Shown: positions 1,816-44,785 of the stretch, piece after piece | Layout of the letters: every line of letters starts with the position of its first letter | Position numbering within the stretch: the stretch's first letter is position 1 | From: a bacterium | GTDB taxonomy: Bacteria > Patescibacteriota > UBA1384 > VFKW01 | DNA: 64,000 bases | Assembly: GCA_030647355.1 (NCBI GenBank) | Contig: JAUSIS010000013.1 | Span: 113,117 to 177,116 of the forward strand | Direction of reading: 5' to 3' | The notes under the pieces: generated by a model | What the model was told of the DNA's origin: nothing | Databases searched by the model: none | The model's input: only the letters and a program-made list of their open reading frames with translations | Translations under genes and position numbers: made by a program

Positions 1816-1982
1816 GTATATGTTGGTTAGTAAATAAATTGCCGGTAAGATACCGAATACCCAGATTGGCATCAAAGCAATAAAGAAGAGCAATAATATC
1901 GTGAGGGAAATCTTATTAACTAACAGTTGTGTATTATCTCCTTTAATGACTTTATTAATTATTATGATTCTGCTTTGCTTCA
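1816..1982 (-). CDS. Small hydrophobic protein (55 aa), translationally coupled to upstream transferase
   Basis: ORF MKQSRIIIINKV...LLTNIY not in the supplied track. Its ATG overlaps the TGA stop of the upstream gene (ATGA). Single predicted TM segment. Confidence 0.3.
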
Positions 1983-3122
1983 TCTATCCTTCTTAATTCT
2001 TCTGATCCATTCTAACATAACCAGCCCACCCGATAAAAAAAGCATCACCCCAATCAGCCAAATAAGAGCCCAAAATTTTCCTTCCGGACCGGTTCTCAAG
2101 GCAACATATCCAAAAATAATCGAACCGGCATACAGCATCAAAACAGTCTGTTTAACTGTCAACCCTGCTCGCATTAACCTGTGGTGAATATGATTTTGAT
2201 CTGCCTCAAAAGGTGATTTATGGTGAATCAGTCGGTTGCTGACGACCCATATACCATCCAAAAGAGGTAATCCCATAATAAGCGAGGCTGTCGCCACCTT
2301 TCCCCCGGAAATTATTGCCAGTATTGCCAACATATATCCCAAAAACATACTTCCGGTATCCCCCAGAAACATCCGAGCCGGACTAAAATTAAAAGGTAAA
2401 AAACCAAATACACTTCCGGCTAAAATTATCGCCAATATCGCAACTGCCGGTTGATTTATTCTAGGACTAATCGCCAACAAGAAGATCGCCAAAGTAGCAA
2501 TAATCACAACTCCACTGGCCAGTCCGTCTACCCCGTCTAGCCAATTCACCACATTCATTATTAAAACTATCCATAGCACAACAAATAGCTGTCCCCAGCT
2601 AAACGAAAAATTCCCAATTGTAAATATTGTCTGATCCAAATGAATGAGAGAATCAAAGGGATTATTAATCCAATTAATTGTCACCCCGAATCCTGCAACC
2701 GCAAACCCTGCTAAAAACTGAGCTAATAGTTTCCCAGACCACTTCACTCCTTTAATGTCGTCATAGAGCATCACCGAAGCGATTATCAAAGCCCCTAAGA
2801 GCACACCGAATAAATTTCTGTCCAAACCCCAAACCGTTTCATCAACGAACTTCAATCTATCGGCACTAAACACCAAAATCAAAGTGACCACCAGCCAAAA
2901 ACTGATGAATATTCCTAGCCCGCCGATTCTAGGCAGAGGTTTGGAATGTATATCGCGATCTCGCACTCTTTGAGTGATATTTTTCAAAATTGCCCATTTT
3001 CGCAACCGAAAACAAACAGCGAATGAAATAATTCCTACTGCAACTACTAGAAACAAATAAGACCAAACCATTTCCATTAATCCTCCGGGCAAATCATCAA
3101 TCAGCGTTTTACTTTGCCCCAA
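1980..3122 (-). CDS. Glycosyltransferase family 4, polyprenyl-phosphate sugar-phosphate transferase (MraY/WecA type)
   Basis: Multi-TM protein with a DD motif (MLYDDIKG), NVVNWLDGVDGLASG (NxxNxxDGxDGL) and an HIHHRL motif. Confidence 0.7.
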   Translation of the reverse strand: MGQSKTLIDDLPGGLMEMVWSYLFLVVAVGIISFAVCFRLRKWAILKNITQRVRDRDIHSKPLPRIGGLGIFISFWLVVTLILVFSADRLKFVDETVWGLDRNLFGVLLGALIIASVMLYDDIKGVKWSGKLLAQFLAGFAVAGFGVTINWINNPFDSLIHLDQTIFTIGNFSFSWGQLFVVLWIVLIMNVVNWLDGVDGLASGVVIIATLAIFLLAISPRINQPAVAILAIILAGSVFGFLPFNFSPARMFLGDTGSMFLGYMLAILAIISGGKVATASLIMGLPLLDGIWVVSNRLIHHKSPFEADQNHIHHRLMRAGLTVKQTVLMLYAGSIIFGYVALRTGPEGKFWALIWLIGVMLFLSGGLVMLEWIRRIKKDR

Positions 3123-3746: not shown

Positions 3747-5018
3747 TCAGTCCATATCAAGTAGAGATTGTAGTTTGTTCCCATCCTTAAGCGGAGCGAC
3801 AATAGCCAAGTTCAAGTTCTTATTAATAAATATTCGTTTGGCAACCCTCATCACATCTTCTGCTGTCACACTTTCAATCTTCTTAATAACTTGATCGGCA
3901 GTCAATACTTCAGGCATTAAAAGCTCCTGCCTACCGAACCAGCCAGAGACGCTATCTGTATCATCCATGGACAAACTTATCGCGCCCTTTAGATAATCTT
4001 TGGCTTTTTGCAATTCGTCAGGGCGGACAATCACATCCCGCAGTAATTTAAATTCCTTAATCACCCCCTCTATCGCTTCCTCTAATTTACCTAAATTTAA
4101 TCCTGCATGCACGATCAATGCGCCAGTGTCCTCATATGATTCGATATGTGATGAAATGTGATAAGCCAAACCTTTTTCTTCCCGTATCTTTAAAAATAAT
4201 CGAGAACTCATCCCTTGACCCAAAATACAGTTAAGCAAATTCCAAGTGTATCGATCAGGATCGGTGTTCCCAAAACCTCTTACACCTAAAGCTAAATGCG
4301 CCTGATCAGTCTGCTTAAAATAAACCGATTTCTTGGGTTCTTTCTGTACTTCATACGCCTTCTTTGAAACAAGAATCTTACCATTAGTAGCTTTACCAAA
4401 AATACTACCAAAACCGTCAACCACTTTCTGATGGGTAATATTCCCGGCAACTGATATAACAATAGAGTTACCTTGATAGAAACTATTCAGGTACGAAATA
4501 AAATCTTTCCGCTTGATATTCTGAATATTGTTCTTACTGCCAACTATTGGCCAGCCCAATGGCTGATCGGGCCACATTAAACCAATAAGAAGTTCATATA
4601 CATGACTAGGCGGGTCATCGTAACGGCGGTTAATTTCTTCCACGATCACTCCGCGCTCCCGATCAATCGCTTCTTTCTCTAATAGAGAACTAAAAACCAT
4701 TTCCCCTAGTACTTCAAATCCGCGTTTGGCAAACTCAAAAGGTAACAAATTCCAATACGCTGTATGATCCTGATCTGTCCAGGCATTCAATTGACCGCCT
4801 ACACCTTCAATTGCTCTAGCAATATCTGCTTGGCCAGGATATTTCTTGGTGCCCTTAAAAAGCATATGCTCCAGAAAATGTGAAATACCGTTTATCTTCT
4901 CCGTCTCATAACGGCTCCCCGCTTTTACATATACCGTAGTTGCCAGCGAACGCATATGCGGCATCTCCGATGTCAAAATTCTTACCCCATTTGCTAAAAT
5001 CGTTTTTTTATAATCCAT
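3747..5018 (-). CDS. M16 family zinc peptidase (pitrilysin-like)
   Basis: Inverted zincin motif HFLEHMLFKGT (HxxEH) near the N-terminus. Length and architecture typical of M16. Confidence 0.8.
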   Translation of the reverse strand: MDYKKTILANGVRILTSEMPHMRSLATTVYVKAGSRYETEKINGISHFLEHMLFKGTKKYPGQADIARAIEGVGGQLNAWTDQDHTAYWNLLPFEFAKRGFEVLGEMVFSSLLEKEAIDRERGVIVEEINRRYDDPPSHVYELLIGLMWPDQPLGWPIVGSKNNIQNIKRKDFISYLNSFYQGNSIVISVAGNITHQKVVDGFGSIFGKATNGKILVSKKAYEVQKEPKKSVYFKQTDQAHLALGVRGFGNTDPDRYTWNLLNCILGQGMSSRLFLKIREEKGLAYHISSHIESYEDTGALIVHAGLNLGKLEEAIEGVIKEFKLLRDVIVRPDELQKAKDYLKGAISLSMDDTDSVSGWFGRQELLMPEVLTADQVIKKIESVTAEDVMRVAKRIFINKNLNLAIVAPLKDGNKLQSLLDMD

Positions 5019-5210
5019 TCGTACTTCCTTTGTTTAATATTAGATGAATTAGTGTAAGCAATCAAGGACACTAAAAATATTACGATAATTAAATATATAT
5101 ATTAGGAGGAACAATTAAAAAACGCCAATATAAACGCCAAAAGATTTGACACTTGACAATACAAATAATAAACTAGATATAGATAATAAAATAAGCAACT
5201 GGGAGGGGAT

Positions 5211-6668
5211 ATGTCACTAAGCGCGCCTTTGGATAAAATAATTCCACTAACTGACGCTCGAGATAATTTCTCAAAAATAGTTTCCGAAATAGAGAAAACT
5301 ACTGAAGGCATGTATGTCCTAACCAAAGGCGGCAAACCGTCCGTAGCTATTATCAATATTAATTATTTAGAACGCTTAACCGGCGGTCCATTAATCAAGC
5401 CAAGCGAAGAAAATGAGCAAACAGCTGACGAAGCCGATACCCCAAGCGATGAATCATCCAAACTGGCAAAATTTGACGATAAGTCAGCAGATAAACAAAA
5501 CGATACCAAACAAGACGACGATATTAAAAAAACTCCGACCGGTTTCATAAAACCCGCAATACCCAATACTCCATCATTTACCCCCCCGCCTGCTATAAAA
5601 CCCATCATTCCCATTACCCCCTCTAGCCCTCCAGCCACCCCAACTCCCTCTCCGTCAACTTCCACACCCTCTACACCAAAACCTCCCACACTGGCGCCAC
5701 CCCAACCGCCAATTATAAAACCGGCACCATTTACCCCTCAAGCACCATTCAAACCAACCACCCCCCCGCCTGCCGTCCCATCTCCAAGTACCAATAATCC
5801 TCCGGCACCTACCCCTAAACCACAAGTCAACAACCTCGCTTCCAGTATGAAAACCCCGCCGGCGATCGCCGCTGTTCAAGCGCAGACCCAAACTCCCCCT
5901 GCTCCATCGCCAACCCCGCCCCCGCCAAAAATAAATCCTACCTGGTTAAATCCGGCGCCTCCCACTCCGCCAGCTCCGCCAACCAACCAAACCCCTCCTG
6001 CACAACCGGCCAGCCAACCAATATCGCCGACCGCCGTCTCGACACCCCCCCTGCCGACACCCAAGAATAATACACCAACCCCTGTAACCGCCAATCCAAG
6101 TGGAGCACCTACCCAATCTCCGTCCGCCCCAGGTATACCCCAACCACAACCAACACCTTTTAACGTTCCGAACCAGACACCACCCGCAGCGCCAAAAATA
6201 AATCCTACTTGGCTAAATCCAGCAGCGCCTACCCCTCCCGCTAACCAACCAGCCAGTATGCCGCCAACCCCCCCACCCGCCGCTTCTATCCCAACCAATC
6301 CAACACCACCCATTACCAACCAACCTCCACAACAACCTGCAAAACCCTACAGCCCGCAATTTAACTCCGGAAGCGGTGCTGCTCGAACATTAAGTGTCAA
6401 CCAACCAACTACTGCTCCGACCCCTAACACACCAACCCCGACATCCCCAGTTGCAACAGTCCCCGCCCAAACACCTCCCACCCAAGCTCCCCAAAACCCG
6501 CCAATATCCCCTCCCCCCATCACAAATACGGTTGCCATGACACCCCCGACAACTCCAACTCAACCAGCTACTCCAGCACCCTCTAATCCCACACCCCCCC
6601 AAACTCCACCGATACCTCCCCCGCCTGCTCCTCCTGCAGCCAATTCAGTATCAGATATGGAAATATAG
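5211..6668 (+). CDS. Phd/YefM antitoxin-like N-terminal domain fused to a ~400-aa Pro/Thr-rich low-complexity tail
   Basis: N-terminus LTDARDNFSKIVSEIEKTTEGMYVLTKGGKPSVAIININYLERL matches the YefM/Phd fold. The remainder is P/T/A-rich with an internal repeat, (P/A)PKINPTWLNPA(P/A)PTPPA, present twice. Confidence 0.55.
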   Translation: MSLSAPLDKIIPLTDARDNFSKIVSEIEKTTEGMYVLTKGGKPSVAIININYLERLTGGPLIKPSEENEQTADEADTPSDESSKLAKFDDKSADKQNDTKQDDDIKKTPTGFIKPAIPNTPSFTPPPAIKPIIPITPSSPPATPTPSPSTSTPSTPKPPTLAPPQPPIIKPAPFTPQAPFKPTTPPPAVPSPSTNNPPAPTPKPQVNNLASSMKTPPAIAAVQAQTQTPPAPSPTPPPPKINPTWLNPAPPTPPAPPTNQTPPAQPASQPISPTAVSTPPLPTPKNNTPTPVTANPSGAPTQSPSAPGIPQPQPTPFNVPNQTPPAAPKINPTWLNPAAPTPPANQPASMPPTPPPAASIPTNPTPPITNQPPQQPAKPYSPQFNSGSGAARTLSVNQPTTAPTPNTPTPTSPVATVPAQTPPTQAPQNPPISPPPITNTVAMTPPTTPTQPATPAPSNPTPPQTPPIPPPPAPPAANSVSDMEI

Positions 6669-6720
6669 ACCCATAACAAAACCACCAGCAAAGCTGGTGG
6701 TTTTTGGTTAAACAGCAAAT

Positions 6721-7332
6721 CTAGTGTTTTTTGAAATGTTTCATCACATACCAAACAATCGCCAACAATATGGCTACGATAATAATATAATCGAATCCGT
6801 GAAATGTACTTCTGATTGAATCCCAATTATCACCCAACACTACACCGACATAAGCCAATCCTAGCGTCCAAGGCAACGACCCCAAAAAGGTATACACAAT
6901 AAAACGTTTGAAATGCATTTTACTAATTCCGGCTGGAAGTGAAATAAAAGTCCGAACCACCGGTAGTAATCTCGAAATAAATATCGCCCACTCCCCGTAA
7001 CGACTAAACCACTTATCAGCTCTCTCAAGATCGCGATTAGATACAAAAATAAACCTACCATATTTTTCAACTAATGGACGCCCGCCCCAAGCTCCTAACC
7101 AATACGACACCGAAGACCCGATCACGCACCCCACTGCGCCTGCCACTCCGACTAACCAGAGATTCATTACTCCCCTACTAACCAAAAATCCCGAAAAAGG
7201 CATTATTACTTCTGAAGGCAGGGGAATATTCGCACTTTCTATTGCCATCAAACCAACCACTCCGCCATATCCGGTTGCCCGAATAACATGAATGATAAAA
7301 TTTCCCAGTGTTGTCAAAATCGCTTCAACCAT
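6721..7332 (-). CDS. DedA/SNARE-associated family membrane protein
   Basis: GYGGVVGLMAIESANIPLPSE...RLLPVVRTFISLPAGISKM is a typical DedA core. Confidence 0.8.
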   Translation of the reverse strand: MVEAILTTLGNFIIHVIRATGYGGVVGLMAIESANIPLPSEVIMPFSGFLVSRGVMNLWLVGVAGAVGCVIGSSVSYWLGAWGGRPLVEKYGRFIFVSNRDLERADKWFSRYGEWAIFISRLLPVVRTFISLPAGISKMHFKRFIVYTFLGSLPWTLGLAYVGVVLGDNWDSIRSTFHGFDYIIIVAILLAIVWYVMKHFKKH

Positions 7333-7340
7333 CTATTCTC

Positions 7341-7943
7341 CTATCTAGACCGATAATGAAATAATGTAAAAACTCCAAGCGCCGTAATAAGACCCACCAA
7401 TGAGCCGGCAATTACCTGCAAGAGAGAATGCCTTTTTCTGTGTATACGAGACCATCCAACCGGGATCAGAAAAAAATACAAAATTAAAGCATATGGGTTA
7501 TATAGATAAGCCAACAATGTCACTACAGAAGAAAAGGCCATTGTGTGCAGACTGATCTTCCAAAAAACTGTAACAAATATAATAATTACCAGCTCGCTTA
7601 TCAGAGTAATACCCATAATAGTCAACGCCGCCGGAGCATCCTTTCTAAGCAAAACCCAGGTACCGATAACGGCACCGATAAGAGCAATCGCCAGCGGACG
7701 TAATCTTTCTTCCCTTTCACTTAAATTTAACCCGCGGACATTACCCTTATGAAAAGCCCAGTAGACATATGCCGAAGCCGGACCAATCAAGATAAAAATC
7801 CCAAGCAGCGCCCATATCCAAAAATACTCATAACGCGACTCGTAATATACCGAGATCGCTAGTATCGCCAGTCCTGCAACCAAAGGCGGAGAAAAGACAG
7901 CCGATATCATAAAAGCTAATCTGTCTTTTATTGTTTTTGTCAT
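7341..7943 (-). CDS. Membrane protein, divergent PAP2-like phosphatase
   Basis: Multi-TM protein. KISLHT and SRIHRKRHSLLQ resemble PAP2 motifs 2 and 3 (PSGH, SRx5Hx3D). Stop/start overlap with the next PAP2 gene. Confidence 0.4.
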   Translation of the reverse strand: MTKTIKDRLAFMISAVFSPPLVAGLAILAISVYYESRYEYFWIWALLGIFILIGPASAYVYWAFHKGNVRGLNLSEREERLRPLAIALIGAVIGTWVLLRKDAPAALTIMGITLISELVIIIFVTVFWKISLHTMAFSSVVTLLAYLYNPYALILYFFLIPVGWSRIHRKRHSLLQVIAGSLVGLITALGVFTLFHYRSR

Positions 7944-8518
7944 AATCTAAACCTCTTCAAAAATCCCAATACAGGCACTGCTAAATACCTATCCAAATAC
8001 TCATCAATCAGCCAGAATAATACTGCCGCAATACACCCAACAATAGCTCCTACAATTACATCAAGAGGATAATGCACCCCGACAAACACTCTTGTAATAC
8101 TTATAATCCCTGCAATAATAAACATAATATTTCCCAACCTCTTGTAACCATGTAAGCGCATTGATAAGGCTAAGGCAAAAAGCAAAGCAGCATGATCCGA
8201 AGGAAAAGATGTATCGGGCCTGTGAAACAATAATTCTTGAGTGCCCGCAAATGCCTCCGGCCTTGGACGATTTACCAATAGCGCCAAAGCTTTGCCGAAA
8301 ACCAGCCATCCAAAAACCGCCGCAACAACAGATTTAAATACTGCCTTTTTAGTCGGGGCAGACCAAAACCATAAAACCAAAAGTAATATAGGCAATCCAT
8401 AAATCAAATACTGGGCTAAAAAAATCCAAACTTGGTTTAACCAGTGATTTTTATCAACCAGCTCTTGAATCGAAATCAAGAATCTACCATCAAATTCAAA
8501 AATCTTACCCATAAACAT
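7940..8518 (-). CDS. PAP2 family phosphatase (BcrC/PgpB-like)
   Basis: Motif 1 VNRPRP, motif 2 FPSDHA and motif 3 SRVFVGVHYPLD are all present. Confidence 0.7.
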   Translation of the reverse strand: MFMGKIFEFDGRFLISIQELVDKNHWLNQVWIFLAQYLIYGLPILLLVLWFWSAPTKKAVFKSVVAAVFGWLVFGKALALLVNRPRPEAFAGTQELLFHRPDTSFPSDHAALLFALALSMRLHGYKRLGNIMFIIAGIISITRVFVGVHYPLDVIVGAIVGCIAAVLFWLIDEYLDRYLAVPVLGFLKRFRL

Positions 8519-8623
8519 ATCTTAACATTATTAAAAAGCAATTCCAACAAATTACTCTACACCACAATCTTTCTTGCAGCATAGATTAATATGTCGTACA
8601 ATCTATATATACAAGGAGGATTC

Positions 8624-9577
8624 ATGGATCTCAATTCAGCTATTAGGCAATTTCTTGAATATTGCGAGCTCGAAAAAGGACATTCGCCTTTGACAATCAG
8701 GAATTACTCACAATACCTGGAGCGCTTCCATGCATGGGCAAACTTACAGAATATATCAAAACTAGAAGAAATCACTCAGGACACTATAAGGCAATACCGG
8801 CTGTATTTAAATCGAATCCAAGATGAAAACGGCAACAATCTAAAAAAAATCACCATCAATTATCATCTTATAGCCCTGCGCTCGTTTCTGAAATTTATCA
8901 GTAAAAAAGATTTGGCTCAAACTCTGCAAGCAGAAAAAATTGAACTTGCCGATACCGATGAAAGACAAATCAGCTTTCTTAGTCCGGAAGAAGTTGAAAC
9001 ATTGTTAAATCAACCTAATCAAAGCTCAATAATCGGCTTGCGGGATAAAGCAATCCTGGAAACCCTATATTCAACCGGCTTGCGCGTCAGCGAATTAGTC
9101 AATCTTAAACGCGATCAAATCAACATCGAAAAAGGAGAATTTGCAGTCCTTGGTAAGGGCGGCAAGGTTAGAGTTGTCTTCCTTTCCGATCGAGCAAAGA
9201 TTTGTCTTAAGCAATTCCTCGCTAGGCGTAGCGACACTGACGACTATGTCTTTATTCGTTTTGGACGTAAGAAAAACCCGGCATTGCAAATAGGAACTGA
9301 AGAATTAAAACTAACCTCGCGTACAATTCAGAGAATTATCCATCATTATGCAGTAAAAGCGGGCATCATAAAGCCGGTTACACCTCATGTCCTGCGCCAT
9401 AGCTTTGCCACCGACCTACTTTCCAACGGTGCCGACCTTCGTAGCGTCCAAACTCTTCTCGGTCACTCTTCTGTCACCACAACCCAAATCTACACTCACG
9501 TGACAGACCCCCAATTAAAAGAAATTCATAAGCAATTCCACGGCAAAACACTAAAGACACCTCTGGAAAAGAATTAA
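8624..9577 (+). CDS. Tyrosine recombinase XerC/XerD family
   Basis: LRVSEL, HVLRHSFAT and LLGHSSVTTTQIYTHV catalytic-region motifs. RTIQRIIHHYAVKAGI is XerD-like. AAGGAGGA RBS before ATG at 8624. Confidence 0.8.
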   Translation: MDLNSAIRQFLEYCELEKGHSPLTIRNYSQYLERFHAWANLQNISKLEEITQDTIRQYRLYLNRIQDENGNNLKKITINYHLIALRSFLKFISKKDLAQTLQAEKIELADTDERQISFLSPEEVETLLNQPNQSSIIGLRDKAILETLYSTGLRVSELVNLKRDQINIEKGEFAVLGKGGKVRVVFLSDRAKICLKQFLARRSDTDDYVFIRFGRKKNPALQIGTEELKLTSRTIQRIIHHYAVKAGIIKPVTPHVLRHSFATDLLSNGADLRSVQTLLGHSSVTTTQIYTHVTDPQLKEIHKQFHGKTLKTPLEKN

Positions 9578-10253: not shown

Positions 10254-10988
10254 ATGCAGAAAGAAAAATTGACCGACTATTTAAATATCGCTATATCAGA
10301 AATAAACGACGGAAACATGTCATACGTCTGGGGCAACCACCAAGAAGTTCTAGAAAACCGTACAAAATTCTTAGAAAAATCTGGCTTCGATACCAACAAT
10401 TGCGCTGTCATGAGCGTAACACATGGCACAGATATATTGATCGCCGACCAATCATATCGAGGCAAAGGAATGTTTGACCATTCAACTGCCCTAAAAGTTG
10501 ACGCTTTAATGACTCAAGATCCTAAAATTGTTCTTTGCCTACTGATCGCTGATTGCCTGCCAATCGTTTTTTATGATCCAAAAAAAAATATCTTAGCCCT
10601 CGCCCACATGGGTTGGAAAAGCACTAATGAAAAACTTGCCATGAAACTGATCACACTAATGAAACAAAAATTCGGCAGTAATCCAAAGGATATTGTTGTA
10701 TCCATCGGTCCTGGAATACACAAAAAATCTTCTATCTTCCCAAGTCCCGTTCTTCAAGAAAAAACGCTCAATTGGCAGCCTTATTTAAAAAATTTACCGA
10801 ACAACCAAACGTCAGTTGACAATCTCGGATATAACTATCAACAGCTTCTTGATTCGGGTATTATTGCAAAAAATATTGAAATTAACCCAATAGACACAGC
10901 CCAATCGCCGGATTACTTTTCTCACTATCGCTCCGTTCGGACCGGCGAGTCTGAAGGTAGATTCATGGTCGCCGTTCGCTTAAAATAA
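10254..10988 (+). CDS. pgeF: PgeF/YfiH family (Cu-oxidase_4/DUF152) purine nucleoside-processing enzyme
   Basis: HGTDIL...IADCLPIVFYD...ALAHMGWKS motifs of the YfiH family. AT-rich native composition. Confidence 0.7.
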   Translation: MQKEKLTDYLNIAISEINDGNMSYVWGNHQEVLENRTKFLEKSGFDTNNCAVMSVTHGTDILIADQSYRGKGMFDHSTALKVDALMTQDPKIVLCLLIADCLPIVFYDPKKNILALAHMGWKSTNEKLAMKLITLMKQKFGSNPKDIVVSIGPGIHKKSSIFPSPVLQEKTLNWQPYLKNLPNNQTSVDNLGYNYQQLLDSGIIAKNIEINPIDTAQSPDYFSHYRSVRTGESEGRFMVAVRLK

Positions 10989-30822: not shown

Positions 30823-32847
30823 GTGGCTAAAATTGCTAACCGGGTTTTTGTACCTATTAAATATCTTTACACAAATAATAACAAATCTCTTGTTCTAATT
30901 TTAATTTTGATTTCATTACAAATGCCTCTTTTGGCGATAGTTCCCTTTTCACAAAAAGCCAAAGCTACAATAACTCCGCCTGCTACGCTAAGCGTCTCTG
31001 ACTTACCACCTAAGCCAAACCCTATACCAAACATTATTTATATGAACGATTTCGCCCAAGACTATGATGGTGAGATCGGACTTTTGATGTTAGCATACTT
31101 GCAACACATCGGCTATGCGAAAATTTCAGCCGTTATCGGCGACTGGAGGTACATACAGGCACAATATGCTATTGATGGAATATTGTCCAGCTATAACATT
31201 GGCGATGTTCCAATCGGCGTCTATAATTTGGCTCAAGCTACTTCGGGCGAAGAAAGACATGGCTATCACGACGGACAGTTAAATGATAATGTTACCCAAC
31301 TCAATCGAGAATACGGCGACTCAACTAATGTTCTTCGAGAGACACTAAACAATGCCACAGAACAACTAACCTTAGTCACTAACGGACCTCTAACATCATT
31401 AAATAATTTAATACAATCAGCGGCTTACAATAACGGAAATGACGATATCCCCCTTACTGGAGTTGAATTAATGCAGCAACATGTTGCTAAATTGATTGTC
31501 GGAGGGGGTTATTACTTTAAGAGCCCGTCATGGTCCAACCTCATGATTGCGCCAGCAGAAGCTTACAATGTAATTGAAACCTGGAATTCCTACTTATCTT
31601 CCAAACCAATTATCTTTATGGGAGAAGATGCCTCAGATGCACAAGGAAGAGATGTAAATGATCCTGATGGATTGGTGAATTTTATGAATGCGAAATTACT
31701 GGTAGGTGAAAATATATGGCCGGCAACCAATCCGGCGCATTGGTTTTGGGGACAGGTACCGGGGGAAGCTCAAGATTTTGGCGATGATGGCACATTCGGA
31801 TTAGGCTATGCCGAATCGCATGATCTTATCAGAACTTTTTATTATGTGTTTGGAGAAAGTGTATATTTCACATTATCTGAACCATGCCTGAATTACGTAG
31901 CCCCAGAAAACTCAATGGACGGATCAGAAGTAGCCGGGCAGACAACATGCACACCAATAGAGGGTGTTAATTCCTATTTTATTTACAGCCCAATTAATCA
32001 AGATGATGTAGATGCGTTAAATGATTTAGTTAGCAGAATCGCCTACACCGCTGCTTTTGAGGATATAACCGCACCTACCACCACTATAGCAGCAATTCCC
32101 TCCTCGCCCGACGGCTCGGACAGTTGGCATAAATCAGCCGCTCCTACTGTTTCTCTATCAGCCAATGATGGCAACGGTTTGGGTGTCGATAGAATCTATT
32201 ACAAATGGGATAATAATACGTACCAAGAATACAGCACCTCACTTATCGCTCCTGAAGGCACCCATACTCTCTACTATTATTCAAACGATAATGCCGGTAA
32301 TAGCGAGGTGGCAAAAAACCGGGAATTCAAGGTAGATACTAACACCGTTACTGCTACAATTACTACTCCTGCGGTTACTACTAGCTCTGCCCCCCAACCC
32401 GCCCTCTCCACTACCGCCCCCAGATACGGCCAAAGGAATGTTACTGTAACTAACCTGCAGACAATGCTTAAACAGATGGGCTACTATAACAAATCCTGGC
32501 CGATTACTGGATATTATGGCAACCTGACACGCACCGCTGTTATGCGCTACCAAAAGGCAAAGTATCTCCAAATTAATGGGCGGGTTGATCCGGCTACTTT
32601 GGCATATTTGAATTACAACGGCCAGGGCTATATCTTTACCAAAACCCTCAAACGTGGCTCTTCCGGTAAAGATGTTATTATTCTTCAAGCTAAACTAAAA
32701 CAAGGAAGATTTATGTCCCGATATATCACTACTACTGGTTATTTTGGCTACTATACTAAAATAGCTGTCAAAAAATACCAAAAAGCGCATTCTCTCCCCA
32801 AAACCGGGATTCTTGATCTCGCCACACGACAGGCAATCAACGATTAA
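30823..32847 (+). CDS. Secreted/membrane-anchored protein with two C-terminal peptidoglycan-binding (PG_binding_1-like) domains
   Basis: N-terminal signal-anchor. Two C-terminal repeats matching the PGRP-like PG-binding motif (TGYYGNLTRTAVMRYQKA and TGYFGYYTKIAVKKYQKAHSLPKTG). Central region has no recognised domain. Confidence 0.55.
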   Translation: MAKIANRVFVPIKYLYTNNNKSLVLILILISLQMPLLAIVPFSQKAKATITPPATLSVSDLPPKPNPIPNIIYMNDFAQDYDGEIGLLMLAYLQHIGYAKISAVIGDWRYIQAQYAIDGILSSYNIGDVPIGVYNLAQATSGEERHGYHDGQLNDNVTQLNREYGDSTNVLRETLNNATEQLTLVTNGPLTSLNNLIQSAAYNNGNDDIPLTGVELMQQHVAKLIVGGGYYFKSPSWSNLMIAPAEAYNVIETWNSYLSSKPIIFMGEDASDAQGRDVNDPDGLVNFMNAKLLVGENIWPATNPAHWFWGQVPGEAQDFGDDGTFGLGYAESHDLIRTFYYVFGESVYFTLSEPCLNYVAPENSMDGSEVAGQTTCTPIEGVNSYFIYSPINQDDVDALNDLVSRIAYTAAFEDITAPTTTIAAIPSSPDGSDSWHKSAAPTVSLSANDGNGLGVDRIYYKWDNNTYQEYSTSLIAPEGTHTLYYYSNDNAGNSEVAKNREFKVDTNTVTATITTPAVTTSSAPQPALSTTAPRYGQRNVTVTNLQTMLKQMGYYNKSWPITGYYGNLTRTAVMRYQKAKYLQINGRVDPATLAYLNYNGQGYIFTKTLKRGSSGKDVIILQAKLKQGRFMSRYITTTGYFGYYTKIAVKKYQKAHSLPKTGILDLATRQAIND

Positions 32848-35044: not shown

Positions 35045-35560
35045 ATGTTCAGTCTAAATCGAGCCACGGTCATTGGCAATCTAACCCGCGATCCGGAACT
35101 TCGATATACCCCCAACGGACAAGCGGTCGCATCTTTTGCTATCGCTACCAATCGCCGTTGGAAAAACCAAAGCGGAGAAATGCAGGACGAAGTCCAATAT
35201 CATGAAATCGTTGCTTGGGGCAAATTGGGTGAAATCGCCAACCAAACCCTGGCTAAAGGTAAAAAGGCCTATATCGAAGGGCGAATTCAAACCCGAAGCT
35301 GGGAAGGACCTGACGGCGCCAAACGCAATAAAACCGAGATAGTCGCCGAAAACTTAATCGCTTTGAGTCCGCGTGATAATTTCGGCCAGACAGGTGATTC
35401 TGACTTCCTCTCCGAAGCCCAAGAAAGCCCCCCAGAAACAAAAAAACCTGGCAAAACCGATTCCAGCCCATCGGGCTCTAAAAGTACTGCTAAAAAGGAT
35501 TCTGACGAGGATTCCTTGGACGACAATAGTGAAATAAAACTGGAAGATATACCGTTTTAA
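35045..35560 (+). CDS. ssb: Single-stranded DNA-binding protein
   Basis: OB fold RATVIGNLTRDPELRYTPNG, an acidic disordered tail, and the C-terminal DIPF tip. Confidence 0.9.
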   Translation: MFSLNRATVIGNLTRDPELRYTPNGQAVASFAIATNRRWKNQSGEMQDEVQYHEIVAWGKLGEIANQTLAKGKKAYIEGRIQTRSWEGPDGAKRNKTEIVAENLIALSPRDNFGQTGDSDFLSEAQESPPETKKPGKTDSSPSGSKSTAKKDSDEDSLDDNSEIKLEDIPF

Positions 35561-36722: not shown

Positions 36723-39700
36723 CTATTCCTCCGCCGGCACTTCCACCACCGACGTGATCGTACCCGTCGGTAGGTAAGACACGATAAACGCCCGGGAAAT
36801 CCCTCCGTAGTAACCAGTAACTTTCATTTTATTCAATGACTGGGTGTAGGCAATAAGGTTAAGGTAAAAAACCGCATTCCGCACATAGTCTAAAGTCCCT
36901 GGATGATATTGTCGTATAAATTGCTGTGTTGCTAAGTTATTGGGAGTTGCATACCAAACAGTCCATGGAGGTGACGGGGGCTTGTAATAGTGGAATTCTT
37001 GTTCCCAATATTTATTAAACGGGCTGGCAAGGTCGTCTATATCTATTGTAATCTCAACTAAATCATCGATTAGCGCATTTCCAAATCCCCTCTTAATTGC
37101 CAGCCCATTGAGCCATTCTTTCCAATAATCACCGTCTCCCCAAGTACTTGAATCATCAGGATCGTATCCCGGCGGTACGCCTTTGGAGAAAGCACTATTC
37201 ATCAAATCTAAATATTCGATCTGGCTGGATAGGCCGGATGCGCCAGCCAACGAACGGGATGAAATAAACAGAAATCCTCCTTTATCATCCACGCTGGCTA
37301 CCGCCATATTGGCCAGATCGCAAACCTGCCGGGCATTCCCGTCATGGTCTGTTCTGGTTTCGACCTTTTCATTATCCTCATTGTAGTAAGGAAGCTTTCT
37401 TAGCTTCCATCCCGGCTTACTTTGACATGGATAAGTTGCCAGTACATCAAATTTTAGTCCTAAATCGGTAATAGCATAAGCATTTAGACCGTAACCCATA
37501 TAACCACCCGTAACATATCCGGGTTCGCCTATCTTTAACACATCCCTCAATCGGGCGCTATTTAAACGAAAAATTGGATACAAACCGTTCCGGTCATAAA
37601 GACTGGCAAAAATCGGATGAGAAAATTCTACTGATGATCCATCTGTATTGCCCGGACTATTAGACCAGACGTCAAAGCCGTATTCGTTTGGAGGTGGGCT
37701 TCCTATCGGGGGTATATCCGCCAAATCTACTTTGGGATTCTGATCGGACCGTTCATAAGCATAACTGTAATCACCGCTATAAAAAAGCAGATTACCGGCG
37801 GTCTGATCGATGCTAATCGACTGGCTGCCGCTTGTAGAAATCGGCCGGTCTAACCCAAGTTTATCGTCAGGATTATTTTTGAAAAGTTCCCAAGTCTGCT
37901 GGGTTCCGTCAGTTTTAGCGTTAAGTTTCCATAAGAAATTCTTATTCGAAAGACTCGCCCCCGAGGAGCTTCCTCCCCACAGGTAAAGAAAATCTTCTCC
38001 TGCTATAGAGGCATAGTTTAAAGATCCGGCAGTTCTCGTCCTTGGCTTCTTGCTTGGATCAGTATCAACTTTCGGATCAGAATCTACTTTGACATATCTC
38101 CAGTCAACTCTCCAGTTATCAGGTAGTCCGGCTAATTGAGAAACTTCACCTACCCACGAAATAAATGATTGATCCGAAGTGTCTGTATTCAAAACAAACA
38201 TCTTATTACTGCCATTAGAAGTAAACAGATCGCCAGACGTCAAACTATAGGAGGGTTGATACCGCAGTAGTATCCTATGATCATTGTCAGCAATACTCTC
38301 AATATTATCAACAGTCGCAATAAACAGCTTGTTATTTCCGCTGATAATCGGCCCTAATGTTATCTGCTTGCCAGCATACAAACCCCTTGCTTGAGAATCG
38401 TCAAGCTGTAAAGTTGCAGGAGCATCGGTAATCAAGTCTTTAGTGATTGATGTGCTTAAAACCTCGCTGTTATAACTGCCTAAATTTACACTAAACATGG
38501 TTAATCCGTTATTTGCCAAAACCTCGCTGGTTCCACCAAGTATTAAATTATTTTCAAACTCAATTTTTTGACATCCTCGAGATCCAGGCGGATTAGTCGA
38601 AAAACAGCTAGCATCATAAAATATTTTTTTAACAGTACCCTTCATTCTCTGATTTTGCGTTCCTTGATCATCAACCGGACCAACAAGGTACTCCATTCCC
38701 AACGCAATCCCCCTTATGGTGCCTTGAGCTACTTTCAATACTTTAACTGTATCGTTCGGCACGGAGTTATTCATCCTCCCTTCGGGCACTAAAACAGCCT
38801 CATTCTGAATACTGCCTCCCAAGTGGTACATATTAAAATTAACGTTGCTGGATACGCCCTTGGGTTTCAGAAAATGCCAGGTCGGGCTCGCAGTAGTTAC
38901 GCCGGTTAATCTCCATGATGGCTTTTGAATTTTCATGTGGCTGTATCCGCCGAATACATACAAAGTATCCTCGGAAAAAACATAATAGCCCTGCGGATTA
39001 GACATATAATTCGGGCCCTCATAGAGCTGCCTGATGGATTTAACGGGTTGACCGGCTATCACCCCGACTTCGCTAACCCTCCCCCAGTAAACCTCATCAT
39101 AACTATCGGTTTGCTCTAAGTTTGGACTGTTTCCATAATAAGTGGCGACATCTCCCGGCGCCAAGCACCTGTTGCCATTACCCAAAGGATTAGCGCTATT
39201 CGTCATCTCGTCGCAACCCGGAGTTACGGTTGTTGCATTCGATAATTGAAGGGTTAATCTCCTTGTATCCGCAACTGACTCTGTATTCCTGCCCGCCAAT
39301 GGCTGGTCAAAGTGCAATTGATATCTGTAGGTTCCAAATCCAACGTCAGTACCGTCTGGAAACCTGGTAATTTTCGAAATCTTCCCCTTTAAATCAACAT
39401 ATTCAGTATCCCCGCCCGAACCATCTTTGGGCCCGTAAACTCGTATAATATCTCCCACCGTTAATCCGTCCGGATATACCTCATCGCCCACAGCGCCATG
39501 AGGAGCATATACGCTCGAGCGCATACTTAAAGTCACTTCATGTATTTCATTAGCTGGCAGCGTCGTTTTGGGCGTGATATTCGGCTCAATCCAATAATCG
39601 GTCGTTGGATTTACGGCCGAAGAACTGTTGATTGATTTATGCGAAAACACTTCTTGGAGGTAATCTCCGTCAGCTAGTACATCTATAACCGGACGGTCTA

Positions 39701-42113
39701 TAACCAGATTCCACTGGGGACTGGCAATAGTCGGATCGATTCTCCAGACATCCGCTGTGCTTCCGATGCTTGTCATGCCTGAATCCCCTACATTTCCAAG
39801 GTTGCCGCCTGCAACTACCAAATTCTTATTGTCTCTGCTGTAACTAACCAGCGCCTCGCTTCTTGGCAACGGACGGTTAATATTTGTGTTAGCAGGCTTA
39901 ATCAGTTTCCATGTTTGAGGTATGCCTCCGCTCAAACTTAGCTCCCAAAGATCATTCTTCTTATTCACGCCCATATTGAATATTATTGCTGTAAGCGGGT
40001 TATCATCCGAATCATCTGCCGGACGTAGATCCCTGTTTAGATATGTTTCATTAGCTGCCATATTGCCGTTTAGCGCGCGATTAGAAATATCTTTGCCGCC
40101 ATACAAGTACGCTATGTTCTCTGACTCGTCATAAACCATTCCGTGTCCTGACCTGGGAGTCGGGCCGAAATTTAAATCCACATGCATAGTCCCCGCTGCC
40201 CCCGGACCATAATCAATGCTGTTTACTCTGCCCCACAATGGCTCCAGATTGATATCGTCTGGCTCTAGCTGAACTATTGAACCGATCGTATAACCGCTTA
40301 TATTAGCAACCGGAACGGGTTGGTTCGCTCCTGGCAAAATCTCTACCGCAGTCCCTCCGCTCCAAATACTTTTTATTTTACTGATGTCATAGTTCCCGTT
40401 TAAATCGTATTTATTATATTCTTTTTGACCGGTAATAGTTTTAGGAAGTACATATACAGAATAGCCGTGACTCTGAAAATATTCATCATACTGAAAATTC
40501 ACAAAATTGACTCCATATCCGAAATTCATCCTATCGCCTTCCAGCGTCCCGCCAAAATCAAACTTATCAGGAATGAATATCAACGGCTTGGTTGTCAATC
40601 CGGTTCCGTCAATTATATGGATAATATCTGCCTTACCGCATACTTCGCGTGCTCCTCCGTTGTGAACTGGTTGAGAGAAATAGAGCGAATCCGGATCCAC
40701 CGTGAAAAAATTTCCGGCCGTATCGATGCTCGTAATAACCCCATCAACTGTAATGTTGAAATTATAAAAATTGCTCTTCCAATATTCCTGTCCGGTCGTA
40801 TACAGCGGATCAGGCCAAGGGTGACTATCCAATTGCAAATAATAATTATACTTAGCCATGACCTTGAGAAATGCCACTCTATCGCCAATTCCGAAAGACG
40901 ATGCTTGTCCGTATTTTAAGTAAACTTTGGTGTCCGGACCCATAAACGCCGTATCCAAAGATTTTGCGATGTTAACATCGTAAGCCAGTTCGCTTGCCGG
41001 AAAAGTCAGAACGGTTGGGGTTGTTTTCTTATAAAGCTGCCGTACATAATAATCCCCGCTAATTTTTTGAGTACTCCCGTTAGCGACAACAGATGCTTTC
41101 TCCCAATTAATTACATTCGAGGGAGTATTATCCGACGGATTGTAGGCATTCTTCATTACCCATAAATCATTACGCTTTCCTCCAGACAAATTCAGCTCGT
41201 CATTGATGATAGCTTTAGTATTGGGATCCATATTCTTTTCAATCGGTCCCCACTTAAATTGATAATTAGTGTCACCAATAAAAGGAGGGTTGATAATACC
41301 TTCGGTCGGATTAGGTAAATCGCTGTTGGCATCTATCATCAGCTTTCCCCCGACGCGATCCACATTCCCTGTTATCCAGTCTTCCAAATTAGTTCTCTCT
41401 TGGCCATCGAGTACCAGACTGTCTTCCGGCAAAGATAAAATCAAAAGATCGTATTTCAAATAGCCCGGATTACTGAACAGACCGGAATATTTCACCCCGC
41501 CAGTATTAGTCACGCCAACATTCCCTTGATCCAGCGGTCCGCCCATTAAAACCTGCCAGTATTCAATCTTGTTTTTCGCATAAACCTTGCCTGTAGAAGG
41601 GTCAATCGGTGCAAGGGGATTCACAAAATCCTTAAATCCGTTATCTTTCAATATAGTACTGCTAGACATTGCCGATCCAATCGTAGTAAAGATATCATTG
41701 GGCTGGACGTAACTTCCTGCAGCTGCATCCCACGCTGAAATTACTGCGACATTGGTGCACCTGGAAATTGTTTTTATTTTTTCTTCCGGAGTAAACGAGT
41801 AATATTTGATATATGGCGCTTTCTTGGAATCTGTTGAAGCTTGGTTTCCAGTGTCAAAGTTTATTAGCATTGTCTGATCAAAAGACGGGTCACCGGCCAA
41901 TTTTTTGCTTAAATCAGAAACTCCTGCCAGCGCCGCTTCCCTCGCCACTCTCGCGTCATTATAAGAAGCCGCATTGCCGATTATGGAGTAACTGTTTATC
42001 GCCGCTCCTAAGGTCGCCGCCGTCATCAAAGTAACAATAAGCAAAGTAAGAACCAATACAGTCCCCTGCTTTTTGAGACCTGTACAATTAAATTTTATTT
42101 TGCCTAAAGCCAT
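36723..42113 (-). CDS. Giant (1796 aa) T4P-associated surface protein: PilX_N-like N-terminal prepilin-type helix plus Kelch/beta-propeller-like repeats (PilY1-like tip adhesin candidate)
   Basis: N-terminus KKQGTVLVLTLLIVTLMTAATLGAAINS resembles the PilX_N hydrophobic helix. Multiple Kelch-like segments (for example SGHGMVYDESENIAYLYGGKD). Last gene of the minus-strand prepilin/pilC cluster. Confidence 0.65.
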   Translation of the reverse strand: MALGKIKFNCTGLKKQGTVLVLTLLIVTLMTAATLGAAINSYSIIGNAASYNDARVAREAALAGVSDLSKKLAGDPSFDQTMLINFDTGNQASTDSKKAPYIKYYSFTPEEKIKTISRCTNVAVISAWDAAAGSYVQPNDIFTTIGSAMSSSTILKDNGFKDFVNPLAPIDPSTGKVYAKNKIEYWQVLMGGPLDQGNVGVTNTGGVKYSGLFSNPGYLKYDLLILSLPEDSLVLDGQERTNLEDWITGNVDRVGGKLMIDANSDLPNPTEGIINPPFIGDTNYQFKWGPIEKNMDPNTKAIINDELNLSGGKRNDLWVMKNAYNPSDNTPSNVINWEKASVVANGSTQKISGDYYVRQLYKKTTPTVLTFPASELAYDVNIAKSLDTAFMGPDTKVYLKYGQASSFGIGDRVAFLKVMAKYNYYLQLDSHPWPDPLYTTGQEYWKSNFYNFNITVDGVITSIDTAGNFFTVDPDSLYFSQPVHNGGAREVCGKADIIHIIDGTGLTTKPLIFIPDKFDFGGTLEGDRMNFGYGVNFVNFQYDEYFQSHGYSVYVLPKTITGQKEYNKYDLNGNYDISKIKSIWSGGTAVEILPGANQPVPVANISGYTIGSIVQLEPDDINLEPLWGRVNSIDYGPGAAGTMHVDLNFGPTPRSGHGMVYDESENIAYLYGGKDISNRALNGNMAANETYLNRDLRPADDSDDNPLTAIIFNMGVNKKNDLWELSLSGGIPQTWKLIKPANTNINRPLPRSEALVSYSRDNKNLVVAGGNLGNVGDSGMTSIGSTADVWRIDPTIASPQWNLVIDRPVIDVLADGDYLQEVFSHKSINSSSAVNPTTDYWIEPNITPKTTLPANEIHEVTLSMRSSVYAPHGAVGDEVYPDGLTVGDIIRVYGPKDGSGGDTEYVDLKGKISKITRFPDGTDVGFGTYRYQLHFDQPLAGRNTESVADTRRLTLQLSNATTVTPGCDEMTNSANPLGNGNRCLAPGDVATYYGNSPNLEQTDSYDEVYWGRVSEVGVIAGQPVKSIRQLYEGPNYMSNPQGYYVFSEDTLYVFGGYSHMKIQKPSWRLTGVTTASPTWHFLKPKGVSSNVNFNMYHLGGSIQNEAVLVPEGRMNNSVPNDTVKVLKVAQGTIRGIALGMEYLVGPVDDQGTQNQRMKGTVKKIFYDASCFSTNPPGSRGCQKIEFENNLILGGTSEVLANNGLTMFSVNLGSYNSEVLSTSITKDLITDAPATLQLDDSQARGLYAGKQITLGPIISGNNKLFIATVDNIESIADNDHRILLRYQPSYSLTSGDLFTSNGSNKMFVLNTDTSDQSFISWVGEVSQLAGLPDNWRVDWRYVKVDSDPKVDTDPSKKPRTRTAGSLNYASIAGEDFLYLWGGSSSGASLSNKNFLWKLNAKTDGTQQTWELFKNNPDDKLGLDRPISTSGSQSISIDQTAGNLLFYSGDYSYAYERSDQNPKVDLADIPPIGSPPPNEYGFDVWSNSPGNTDGSSVEFSHPIFASLYDRNGLYPIFRLNSARLRDVLKIGEPGYVTGGYMGYGLNAYAITDLGLKFDVLATYPCQSKPGWKLRKLPYYNEDNEKVETRTDHDGNARQVCDLANMAVASVDDKGGFLFISSRSLAGASGLSSQIEYLDLMNSAFSKGVPPGYDPDDSSTWGDGDYWKEWLNGLAIKRGFGNALIDDLVEITIDIDDLASPFNKYWEQEFHYYKPPSPPWTVWYATPNNLATQQFIRQYHPGTLDYVRNAVFYLNLIAYTQSLNKMKVTGYYGGISRAFIVSYLPTGTITSVVEVPAEE

Positions 42114-43252: not shown

Positions 43253-44617
43253 CTAATACAATAATTCCAAAACCGGAGCCGGTCTCACAGCTACAGACGA
43301 ATCACCGCCAGTCCCTCCACCTTCATCCTCGATACTAACCGATCCCTCTGAATCGTACTTTTCCTTGCTCAAAAACTCGACACTATCCCCTGAAGTTAAA
43401 TAGAAAACTAGCGGTAGATCATAATCAATCGATCCTGTTCCATTCCACCATGCTTTGTGCCTGGCTAAGTTAAACTCGATTGAATAACGGGTATTCTTTT
43501 CCACGTCTACTAACTCCCCTACTTCACTGCGATTTGCCCCTGCCTCCGCATAGATATGGCAGTCGCTAAACGTAGGACTAGACTCGCTGCAATTCCCCTC
43601 CAAGTCTGAATCCGGCTTAAGCATATAAATATCTACCAAACTGCCTGCTGTAACAATATCGCCTGTAGTCAGCCATAATCTGGCCCGTTTTGGAAATTTG
43701 TTCGGCTCGCTCGGGTCAGTTAAGCTGGCCCAATCGAACATGACAAATGATTGGTTGCCGTCATTAACTCTCAATATATTTCCAATCCAATCCCCTCCCC
43801 CTGCATCCCAATACGAGTCTTGCATAATCAACGATTCAGCGCTTGAATTATCGGGGAAAACCGCCATATCTGTTGACTCGCTGGCTTCTCTCGATATCCA
43901 AACCTGCCCGCTGTATTTGTTAATATTGACATACATAAATTCCGTATCCGAACTCGTTGTATTTTTTATCTTTTCATATCTGATATTTTTCAATTTCACT
44001 CTAAAGGTGTTTTCCTGTTTCGTTGAGTCCCATAATTCCGCGTTCTGCGAATCAACACTCTTCGTACCCCCGCAGGTAATGTCAAAATTTGCTAAAGTAA
44101 ACCGGACACCGGTTCTGGTTATTTTTTTCGATGTGTCGCCGTCAACCGGAATCAATTCCTCAGTGCCTGCTTTAATTGATTCTAAGAGCTTTTCCGGCGA
44201 AAATCCGTCAATCATAATACCGTCCGAAAAATCGATTGATTTGATTAATGTGGACGATAATTGATTGCTTCGATTATCACATGCCGTTACAATTCCCTGA
44301 ATTTCCACCGGTGAATTCGTCACAACTGCGTTTGAACCTGATGTCGTCTTAACTTGCTCATTCTTTTTTGTTATCCCGTTAATAAACTTGATCTCGAAAG
44401 CGGTAAAATTACTCCGACCGACATTCCCCCCCCGTGGAGCAATGGCATCGGTCCGCGCCTCGATCACTGCCTGCCTTATCGTCTCCGCCGCAGTCGTCAG
44501 ACTGCTTCGTTCTTGAATTCCGTTAACTTGAGGCATAGCTAAAGCCGTCAAAATTACAATGACGCCAATTACTACAATTAACTCAATTAAAGTGTATCCT
44601 TTTTTTAATGATTTAAT
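43253..44617 (-). CDS. Large type IV pilin-like protein (~455 aa); start codon uncertain (no in-frame ATG upstream of the prepilin motif)
   Basis: KKGYTLIELIVVIGVIVILTALAMPQ prepilin motif. The only plausible initiation is a non-ATG codon (ATT at 44615-44617) 5 nt after an AAAGGAGA RBS. The in-frame stretch upstream back to 44713 is probably not translated. Confidence 0.55.
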   Translation of the reverse strand: MKSLKKGYTLIELIVVIGVIVILTALAMPQVNGIQERSSLTTAAETIRQAVIEARTDAIAPRGGNVGRSNFTAFEIKFINGITKKNEQVKTTSGSNAVVTNSPVEIQGIVTACDNRSNQLSSTLIKSIDFSDGIMIDGFSPEKLLESIKAGTEELIPVDGDTSKKITRTGVRFTLANFDITCGGTKSVDSQNAELWDSTKQENTFRVKLKNIRYEKIKNTTSSDTEFMYVNINKYSGQVWISREASESTDMAVFPDNSSAESLIMQDSYWDAGGGDWIGNILRVNDGNQSFVMFDWASLTDPSEPNKFPKRARLWLTTGDIVTAGSLVDIYMLKPDSDLEGNCSESSPTFSDCHIYAEAGANRSEVGELVDVEKNTRYSIEFNLARHKAWWNGTGSIDYDLPLVFYLTSGDSVEFLSKEKYDSEGSVSIEDEGGGTGGDSSVAVRPAPVLELLY

Positions 44618-44785
44618 CCCATCTCCTTTTATATTTAAATGTATGTGATATCCTTCGAGCCCCACCGGCCAGCAGAGTCGAGAAGCTCGGTTCTCCACAA
44701 GCCAGAACAGCATCCTTCCCTGTCATTGCGAGCGCATTTCTGTCATTGCGAGCGTAGCGTGGCAATCTTTCTCTTTCCCAACTTC

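Follow-up and report, generated by a model that had tools for sequence, protein, structure and literature searches.

A conserved family of Phd/YefM-fold proteins with long proline-rich tails at a fixed locus in Berkelbacteria-type Patescibacteria

The window analyzed here is a stretch of 64,000 nucleotides of contig JAUSIS010000013.1 (assembly GCA_030647355.1, forward-strand positions 113,117 to 177,116), from a bacterium of the Patescibacteriota. At 5211..6668 on the plus strand, it carries a coding sequence with an ATG start, the longest open reading frame (ORF) over this part of the window, for a 485-amino-acid (aa) protein in which an N-terminal domain of the Phd/YefM antitoxin type is followed by a long proline- and threonine-rich tail. 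Judging from sequence comparison and gene order, this protein belongs to a conserved, vertically inherited family that occupies a fixed genomic position in Berkelbacteria-type Patescibacteria. The reading that we favor, and hold with evenly balanced confidence, is that of a domesticated Phd/YefM-fold protein, probably dimeric and DNA-binding, which carries partner-docking motifs on a disordered tether and is not a toxin-antitoxin component.

An earlier note on this DNA had placed a YefM/Phd domain within the first ~60 residues, and both the profile check and the structure comparison agree with this assignment. Pfam PF02604 matched aa 9-58 (5235..5384, plus strand) with 31.6 bits, above the gathering cut-off of 29.8, when the 80-aa N-terminus was searched in isolation, and with 26.7 bits, under that cut-off, when the full-length protein was used; the NCBIfam model TIGR01552 (phd_fam) ended just under its own threshold (19.8 vs 20.8). 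When the profile of the family N-domain was compared with PDB sequences, RelB2 and RelB1 of M. tuberculosis were retrieved with E-values of 4e-7 and 7e-6, respectively, and Phd more weakly. The AlphaFold2 model of aa 1-75 (predicted local distance difference test score, pLDDT, 83.6) adopts a beta-alpha-alpha-beta-beta-alpha topology, with the fold starting at residue ~7-9, and the top ~36 Foldseek matches to it in the PDB are all Phd/YefM/RelB antitoxins, including the DNA-bound structures 6l8e and 4zm0, the best of them with root-mean-square deviations of 1.1-1.9 A over ~49 residues.

Both family alignments are invariant at seven positions of the domain: T14, R17, T38, K39, G41, P43, and L53. 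In the profile alignments, R17 coincides with R10 of Phd and RelB1; Arg10 of S. aureus YefM makes a base-specific contact with the GTAC operator in the YefM-DNA structure (PMC7544224). By register, T14 matches Ser7 of YefM, a residue that contacts phosphate and thymine. Because the operator-reading Arg of YefM is invariant in the family, we infer DNA binding, and the N-domain would dimerize and bind DNA in the manner of Phd and YefM.

Exhaustive HMMER searches were needed to reveal the long members of the family. With the 80-aa N-terminus as the query, these searches produced 301 clusters (50% identity) at E <= 1e-3 and 106 at E <= 1e-10. In almost all of them, the domain occupies residues ~2-60 of a protein of 150-495 aa; the family as a whole ranges from 105 to 495 aa. 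A word-indexed protein search found nothing with the same query and only proteins of <120 aa with the family profile, and an exact look-up of the 485-aa protein returned no record. When one genome of each GTDB species was scanned, 26 loci were identified, all in Candidatus Berkelbacteria or in metagenome-assembled genomes labelled 'Patescibacteria group', with a few labelled Saccharibacteria. In all 25 complete genes among them, a single frame runs through the domain and a tail containing 20-37% Pro to a conserved C-terminus, for proteins of 214-494 aa. The fusion of the two parts, considered unusual in the earlier note, is indeed so for a PF02604 protein, although the 301 clusters and 26 syntenic genomes show that it is no isolated case. 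Searches of the literature on YefM with disorder and Patescibacteria, on antitoxins of Berkelbacteria, and on orphan antitoxins found no description of a long-tailed YefM family.

The gene order common to the 26 genomes is (DnaE, bPH,) GT4 MraY/WecA-like, NDK, M16, followed by the gene itself and then (DedA,) PAP2, PAP2, XerC, and the stretch from GT4 to XerC is intact in nearly all of these Berkelbacteria-type genomes. Except in the two closest genomes, the neighboring proteins are only 30-55% identical to those of the window, and the N-domain is 57-68% identical, that is, more conserved than the flanking enzymes. No second YefM copy was found in the 64-kb window, and there were no relatives among 2.9 million viral contigs.

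The gene lies between a divergent M16 peptidase gene (3747-5018, minus strand) and a convergent gene for a DedA/VTT-domain membrane protein (6721..7332, minus strand), and Pfam annotation of the neighbors and of small ORFs bears out the remark in the earlier note that no toxin gene accompanies it. An adjacent toxin gene is missing from all 26 syntenic loci and ~9 further loci, and no toxin Pfam families were detected among the 26 small ORFs of the window. In two loci (L020 and L026), ORFs are present between M16 and the gene; they differ between the loci and are unrelated to toxins. The nearest short relatives, of ~97 aa, share 37-46% identity in the domain and have a helical C-terminus, and a PIN-domain toxin gene starts 4 nt downstream of the closest of these (e.g. 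P0191). The search of related genomes proposed in the earlier note thus turned up both length polymorphism and separate short YefM relatives, the latter beside a PIN gene. In databases, family members are named 'type II toxin-antitoxin system Phd/YefM family antitoxin'; this label is probably misleading for the long-tailed family and, if wrong, inflates toxin-antitoxin counts in Patescibacteria.

Past the domain, the protein continues with a charged, D/K/E-rich linker (aa 63-118, 5397..5564, plus strand; D 18%, K 16%), which is modelled with pLDDT values of 42-57 and no secondary structure, and then with a Pro/Thr/Ala-rich region (aa 119-485, 5565..6665, plus strand), predicted to be disordered from its composition and from the full-length model. 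The low complexity of this region had been correctly recognized before: it consists of 34.9% P, 15.3% T, 11.4% A, 7.9% S, 6.8% N, and 6.5% Q, lacks Cys and His, and contains only two Trp residues. With 40 family sequences as input, AlphaFold2 modelled the full-length protein without secondary structure past residue 58 (pLDDT ~40-60), and the ~425 residues from aa 60 to 485 are accordingly predicted to be disordered. The highest 19-residue hydropathy value in the protein is 0.8, so it has no signal peptide or membrane segment; among ~175 family members, neither a signal peptide nor a transmembrane-like hydropathy window (>1.6) was found.

The closest complete orthologue, L002, is 494 aa long, and most of its tail resembles that of the window protein in composition only, with the exception of four islands. 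The first, SSMKTPPAIAAV (aa 211-222, 5841..5876, plus strand), is kept as SSIKTPPAIAAL in L002 amid diverged flanks. The second, PKINPTWLNP (aa 328-337; PKINPSWLNP in L002), belongs to the second copy of a Trp motif, PKINPTWLNPA, that is present at aa 239-249 (5925..5957, plus strand) and again at aa 328-338 (6192..6224, plus strand), in accordance with the internal near-duplicate described in the earlier note. The third, YSPQFNSGSGAARTLSV (aa 380-396, 6348..6398, plus strand), contains SPQFNSGSG; by eye, without alignment, we equate it with the sister-clade motif PAQY[AS]G / QFNSG. The fourth is the C-terminal V[SK]DMEI, part of the tip NSVSDMEI-COOH (6642..6665, plus strand), in which an acidic residue precedes a hydrophobic-x-hydrophobic pattern. 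NQTPPA also occurs twice inside the tail.

The two copies of PKINPTWLNPA differ in four codons (ACC/ACT, TTA/CTA, CCG/CCA, GCG/GCA), all four differences being synonymous and none non-synonymous, so that the peptide rather than the DNA is what is conserved. In the next clade, the motifs [IV][DN]P[ST]W[TL]G, [IV]NPWP[IL], LPPPPxNPTTIPFDEPPKTxxEPGE, and [VI]QD[LI][ED]I-COOH are retained; [IV][DN]P[ST]W of this related clade is the counterpart of copy 1 of the Trp motif. In the sister clade, there is a bipartite C-terminal module, PDDKxxPAQYxG-x(5-13)-EPEDMx[IL]D, and some members have QFNSG, as does the window protein. A search with the module PDDKxxPAQYxG...EPEDMxID retrieved only two short fragments and gave no sign of it in other protein families. 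An acidic-hydrophobic tip (D[LIM][ED]I, [DE][MLI]x[IL][DG], or DLFV) ends 99 of the 175 family sequences. Conserved islands and a conserved tip amid diverged flanks are characteristic of disordered regions bearing short linear motifs.

The earlier note had also described the tail DNA as repetitive and thus prone to length variation or assembly error. Tandem Repeats Finder detected no arrays in it, the four Pro codons are used evenly (29/45/28/35), and the sole sizeable repeat is a 53-nt pair (5923-5975 and 6190-6242) with 81% identity, so the description as repetitive DNA does not hold. Length does vary between species (214-494 aa), not by repeat slippage but through in-frame indels in non-repetitive DNA. 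The tails diverge by substitution as well as by indels: in two species pairs with N-domain identities of 98-100%, tail identity is 59-87%, and many in-frame indels separate the tails of one pair but none those of the other. Short members of 105-115 aa consist of the domain, a ~40-aa linker, and a DDMPIG tip, and because such members exist, the long tails look like linker expansions.

A ribosome-binding site, GGGAGGGG (5201..5208, plus strand), was read from the sequence, and its GGAGG is kept in orthologues. A sigma-70-type promoter-like site, TTGACA-17-TAAACT, is predicted at 5146..5174 (plus strand), and comparison of promoters shows a TTGACA -35 box upstream of nearly all orthologues. Downstream, a strong terminator hairpin with a 12-bp stem and a subsequent U-run (6678..6705; dG -19.8 kcal/mol, z -4.3) is shared with the convergent DedA gene. 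With its own promoter-like site and this hairpin between it and DedA, the YefM-domain gene is monocistronic. The intergenic region toward the divergent M16 gene is 192 bp long and includes, directly 5' of the -35 box, two copies of a direct repeat, AAACGCCAA, with 12-nt spacing (5120..5140, plus strand), a candidate regulator site; ACGCCA-like repeats are partly kept upstream of the two closest orthologues.

In the sister-clade promoters (L018-L026), a common box, TATATGATTAAAATGACCA, is located ~30-70 nt upstream of the gene, over the -10/+1 region, and is a possible operator; in L020 and L026, it reads TGTACA. TGTACA is the core of the S. aureus YefM operator (PMC7544224). GTAC or TGTACA boxes were found upstream of some orthologues only and not in the window.

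The G+C content rises to 55-59% across the tail, compared with ~40% in the surroundings, a difference we attribute to the CCN, ACN, and GCN codons. The ORFs on the minus strand over the gene are Gly-rich mirror images of the Pro codons, as the earlier note had recognized. Rfam and tRNA scans of the 64-kb window gave no matches. There are six runs of 3-4 prolines in the 485-aa protein (at aa 125, 185, 236, 354, 434, and 469). Such runs imply that translation would depend strongly on EF-P, and an EF-P gene was found in one related locus (L034).

The first 10,988 nucleotides of the window are dominated by lipid-carrier and cell-wall genes. In order, this region encodes the C-terminus of DnaE (10-1233), a bPH-domain protein (1230-1790), a GT4 MraY/WecA-like protein (1980-3122), NDK, M16, the YefM-domain protein, DedA, two PAP2 phosphatases (7341-8518), XerC (8591-9577), and PgeF/Cu-oxidase_4 (10254-10988). 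Distant long-tailed members reside in a second block, in which rmlA, rmlC, rmlB, rmlD, and GtrA precede the gene and DedA follows it, with FemAB, a Mur ligase, and TsaD nearby. DedA is located directly downstream, in convergent orientation, in the window, in L018-L025 and L029, and in L027, L031, L036, and L037, and this pairing spans two unrelated blocks, GT4-NDK-M16 and rmlACBD-GtrA. DedA proteins are undecaprenyl-phosphate flippases (PMC11474028, PMC12893004). In L029, BacA/UppP (7714-8496) fills the slot that is elsewhere taken by the first PAP2 gene, an arrangement resembling non-orthologous displacement, which suggests that the PAP2 genes encode undecaprenyl-pyrophosphate phosphatases. 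The neighborhood thus ties the gene, circumstantially, to the polyprenyl-phosphate carrier cycle and cell-envelope synthesis.

In two loci of distant relatives, a conserved 51-54-aa ORF (L030 7480-7635 and L035 3251-3415; 56% identical) takes the convergent slot of DedA and is followed by small proteins with multiple transmembrane segments and no Pfam match. Pfam gave no matches for the scanned neighbors without assignment in L030 and L034, and by hydropathy the unassigned neighbors in L030, L034, and L035 are mostly small membrane proteins. In L034, a gene for a XerC-like tyrosine recombinase with a LAGLIDADG intein (2-1999) lies 31 nt upstream of the 105-aa family member.

If the protein is a domesticated Phd/YefM-fold protein of the kind favored here, the tail would serve as a flexible tether, and its motifs (INPTW and NQTPPA, twice each, SPQFNSGSG, and ...DMEI-COOH) would dock one or more partner proteins. 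By analogy with SSB, the protein would act as a hub or tether in which an oligomeric DNA-binding core is joined through a low-complexity linker to an acidic tip; alternatively, partner binding to the tail could control its activity as a transcription factor. Going by the neighborhood, the process served or regulated would be polyprenyl-phosphate and envelope synthesis (DedA, PAP2/BacA, GT4, GtrA, rml). A DNA-binding regulator with a disordered tether, one of the possibilities raised in the earlier note, stays the best-supported kind of explanation.

Several observations weigh against this interpretation. Directly after the key Arg, the family has an invariant Asp (D18) in place of the Gln11 of YefM, and with this exchange the sequence specificity, or even DNA binding itself, may differ. 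No palindromic operator was found upstream of the gene in the window, where there is only the direct repeat AAACGCCAA; TGTACA- or TGACCA-type boxes are seen at -10/+1 in some orthologues, and GTAC or TGTACA boxes are absent from the window. Low pLDDT fits disorder without proving it. One subfamily ends in ...[TIL]PPAxQ[FLMV] instead of the acidic tip, and 47 of the 175 sequences end in yet other ways, some being truncated. As for the link to the envelope genes, PAP2 rather than DedA adjoins the gene in the 16 genomes of the closest clade, the convergent orientation rules out co-transcription with DedA, one short member (105 aa, in L034) sits behind the intein-containing XerC-like gene, and adjacency in small, slowly rearranging genomes can reflect inherited synteny rather than a functional link.

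A plain repressor or autoregulator, acting on its own promoter and on the divergent M16-NDK-GT4 operon, with a tail that binds no specific partners and serves only as an entropic spacer or degradation handle, is possible but unlikely. The conserved DNA-reading Arg, the divergent arrangement with the M16 operon over 192 bp that include a direct repeat by the -35 box, and the overlap of the conserved sister-clade box with the -10/+1 region are all compatible with repression. A passive spacer, however, would not keep short motifs, a Trp duplicate under purifying selection, and a C-terminal tip, and a tail of 100-430 aa is costly and unusual for a simple repressor.

A more far-reaching version of the tether hypothesis, which we consider distinctly unlikely, is that the antitoxin fold has been turned into a eukaryote-style scaffold, that is, a chromosome-bound or dimeric tether the arm of which recruits or regulates the membrane machinery of the undecaprenyl-phosphate cycle. 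The disordered arm of 100-430 aa would act through its Trp, QTPPA, PAQY/PQF, and acidic-tip motifs on the DedA flippase, the PAP2/BacA phosphatases, and GT4/GtrA. If true, this arrangement would link envelope synthesis in ultra-small cells to the nucleoid or to transcription.

Comparison with the characterized Phd/YefM antitoxins (P1 Phd, YefM of E. coli and S. aureus, and RelB1 and RelB2 of M. tuberculosis) bears on the idea that the protein is a true type II antitoxin for a toxin encoded elsewhere, with the C-terminal ~30-aa module as the toxin-binding segment and the Pro-rich stretch as an expanded linker. The known antitoxins and the YefM-tail proteins have in common the N-terminal fold, the Arg at the start of helix 1, and a disordered C-terminal part with a conserved, binding-type end segment. 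The antitoxins differ in being encoded alongside a toxin gene, whereas there is none here and the gene is monocistronic; in folding ~30-40 C-terminal residues onto the toxin, whereas here 40-430 residues, mostly Pro-rich, follow the domain; in total length (~70-100 aa vs 485 aa); and in the residue after the key Arg (Gln, Gly, or Asn vs Asp). Furthermore, toxin-antitoxin modules show a patchy, mobile distribution, whereas the gene in question resides at one locus among housekeeping genes in 26 genomes.

Genome surveys reportedly include solitary, 'orphan' antitoxin genes without an adjacent toxin. Such genes are usually of canonical size and patchily distributed, and are read as decay products or anti-addiction genes; the YefM-tail family likewise lacks an adjacent toxin but is enlarged, conserved, and syntenic. 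The presence of the PF02604 fold, the antitoxin-like size of the 105-115-aa members (domain, linker of ~40 aa, and DDMPIG tip), the conserved C-terminal module, similar in length to the segments by which YefM and Phd bind their toxins, and the pairing of the closest short relatives with PIN-domain toxins would all fit an orphan antitoxin. Nevertheless, we regard this possibility as decidedly improbable: a toxin gene is adjacent in 0 of ~35 loci and none is found among the small ORFs of the window, strict housekeeping synteny with an N-domain above its neighbors in conservation is the opposite of patchy mobile modules, no relatives come from the 2.9 million viral contigs, and the gene is transcribed on its own.

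Still less probable, to the point of being very improbable, is a secreted or surface Pro/Thr-rich envelope protein, mucin- or linker-like, in which the YefM domain serves for oligomerization only. A P/T-rich composition does resemble that of extracellular linkers, and the gene sits among envelope-synthesis genes. However, there is no signal peptide, transmembrane segment, or sorting motif (maximal hydropathy 0.8; <=1.6 in ~175 members), the folded domain begins at the very N-terminus (residue ~7-9), the DNA-contact Arg is invariant, and where secreted Pro/Thr-rich surface proteins have a C-terminal LPXTG-plus-transmembrane signal, this protein has an acidic C-terminus. The literal mucin-like or cell-envelope protein suggested in the earlier note thus finds no support, envelope neighborhood notwithstanding. 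A frameshift, misassembly, or spurious ORF joining a small YefM gene to other sequence has, beyond the unusual composition, nothing in its favor, and its probability is practically nil: 25 independent assemblies hold one frame from the domain to the conserved C-terminal tip, which excludes frameshift and misassembly, tandem repeats that could have misled an assembler are absent, the peptide motifs of the tail are conserved, and the entire ORF lies between its promoter and ribosome-binding site on one side and its terminator on the other.

In architecture, although by analogy only, the protein resembles SSB, in which an oligomeric core that binds nucleic acid is followed by a linker of biased composition and highly variable length, leading to a conserved acidic-hydrophobic tip. 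SSB differs in its OB-fold and its DDDIPF tip, whereas here the fold is that of YefM and there are additional internal motifs; SSB tips end in Pro-Phe, and those of the family in I, ID, or IG (...SDMEI here; ...DMxID and ...DLEI in relatives). Mimicry of the SSB tip was considered and rejected, the terminal Pro-Phe being absent and the likeness a loose physico-chemical one. The SSB encoded in the window (35045-35560), in a neighborhood of the rpsF-ssb-rpsR type with S18 nearby, ends in ...KLEDIPF, and only two of the 77 window ORFs, those for SSB and the YefM-tail protein, have an acidic-hydrophobic C-terminus. The M16 C-terminus, ...LLDMD, was likewise examined as a relative of the tip and is taken as a coincidence, not being kept in 24 M16 orthologues.

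Housekeeping proteins built on borrowed DNA-binding folds include MraZ, with an AbrB/MazE-like fold, and RodZ, in which an Xre-type helix-turn-helix domain is combined with a Pro-rich linker. Like these, the YefM-tail family reuses a small DNA-binding fold in a conserved gene of an envelope or division neighborhood, and the RodZ linker, too, is long, Pro-rich, and disordered. There is no kinship in sequence or fold, and RodZ is membrane-anchored, whereas the YefM-tail family has no transmembrane segment.

The family would illustrate, in a clear natural case, how an antitoxin fold becomes a domesticated, conserved gene of the chromosome. Long disordered regions in which short linear motifs are conserved are generally considered rare in bacteria, and the predicted tail is one of them. 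Because the motifs are short and sharply defined and the proteomes of Berkelbacteria are small (CP011213, a complete genome, has 915 kb), a partner should be findable. The recurrent pairing with DedA and lipid-carrier genes provides a concrete hypothesis on how the envelope is made in organisms that so far do not grow in culture on their own.

Three other proteins in the window deserve mention. A 1796-aa protein (36723-42113, minus strand) has weak Kelch/beta-propeller-like matches, and near it is encoded a 486-aa protein with a prepilin-type N-terminal methylation motif (43253-44713, minus strand). A 674-aa protein (30823-32847) contains two PG_binding_1 peptidoglycan-binding repeats, preceded by an N-terminal part of ~500 aa without further match.

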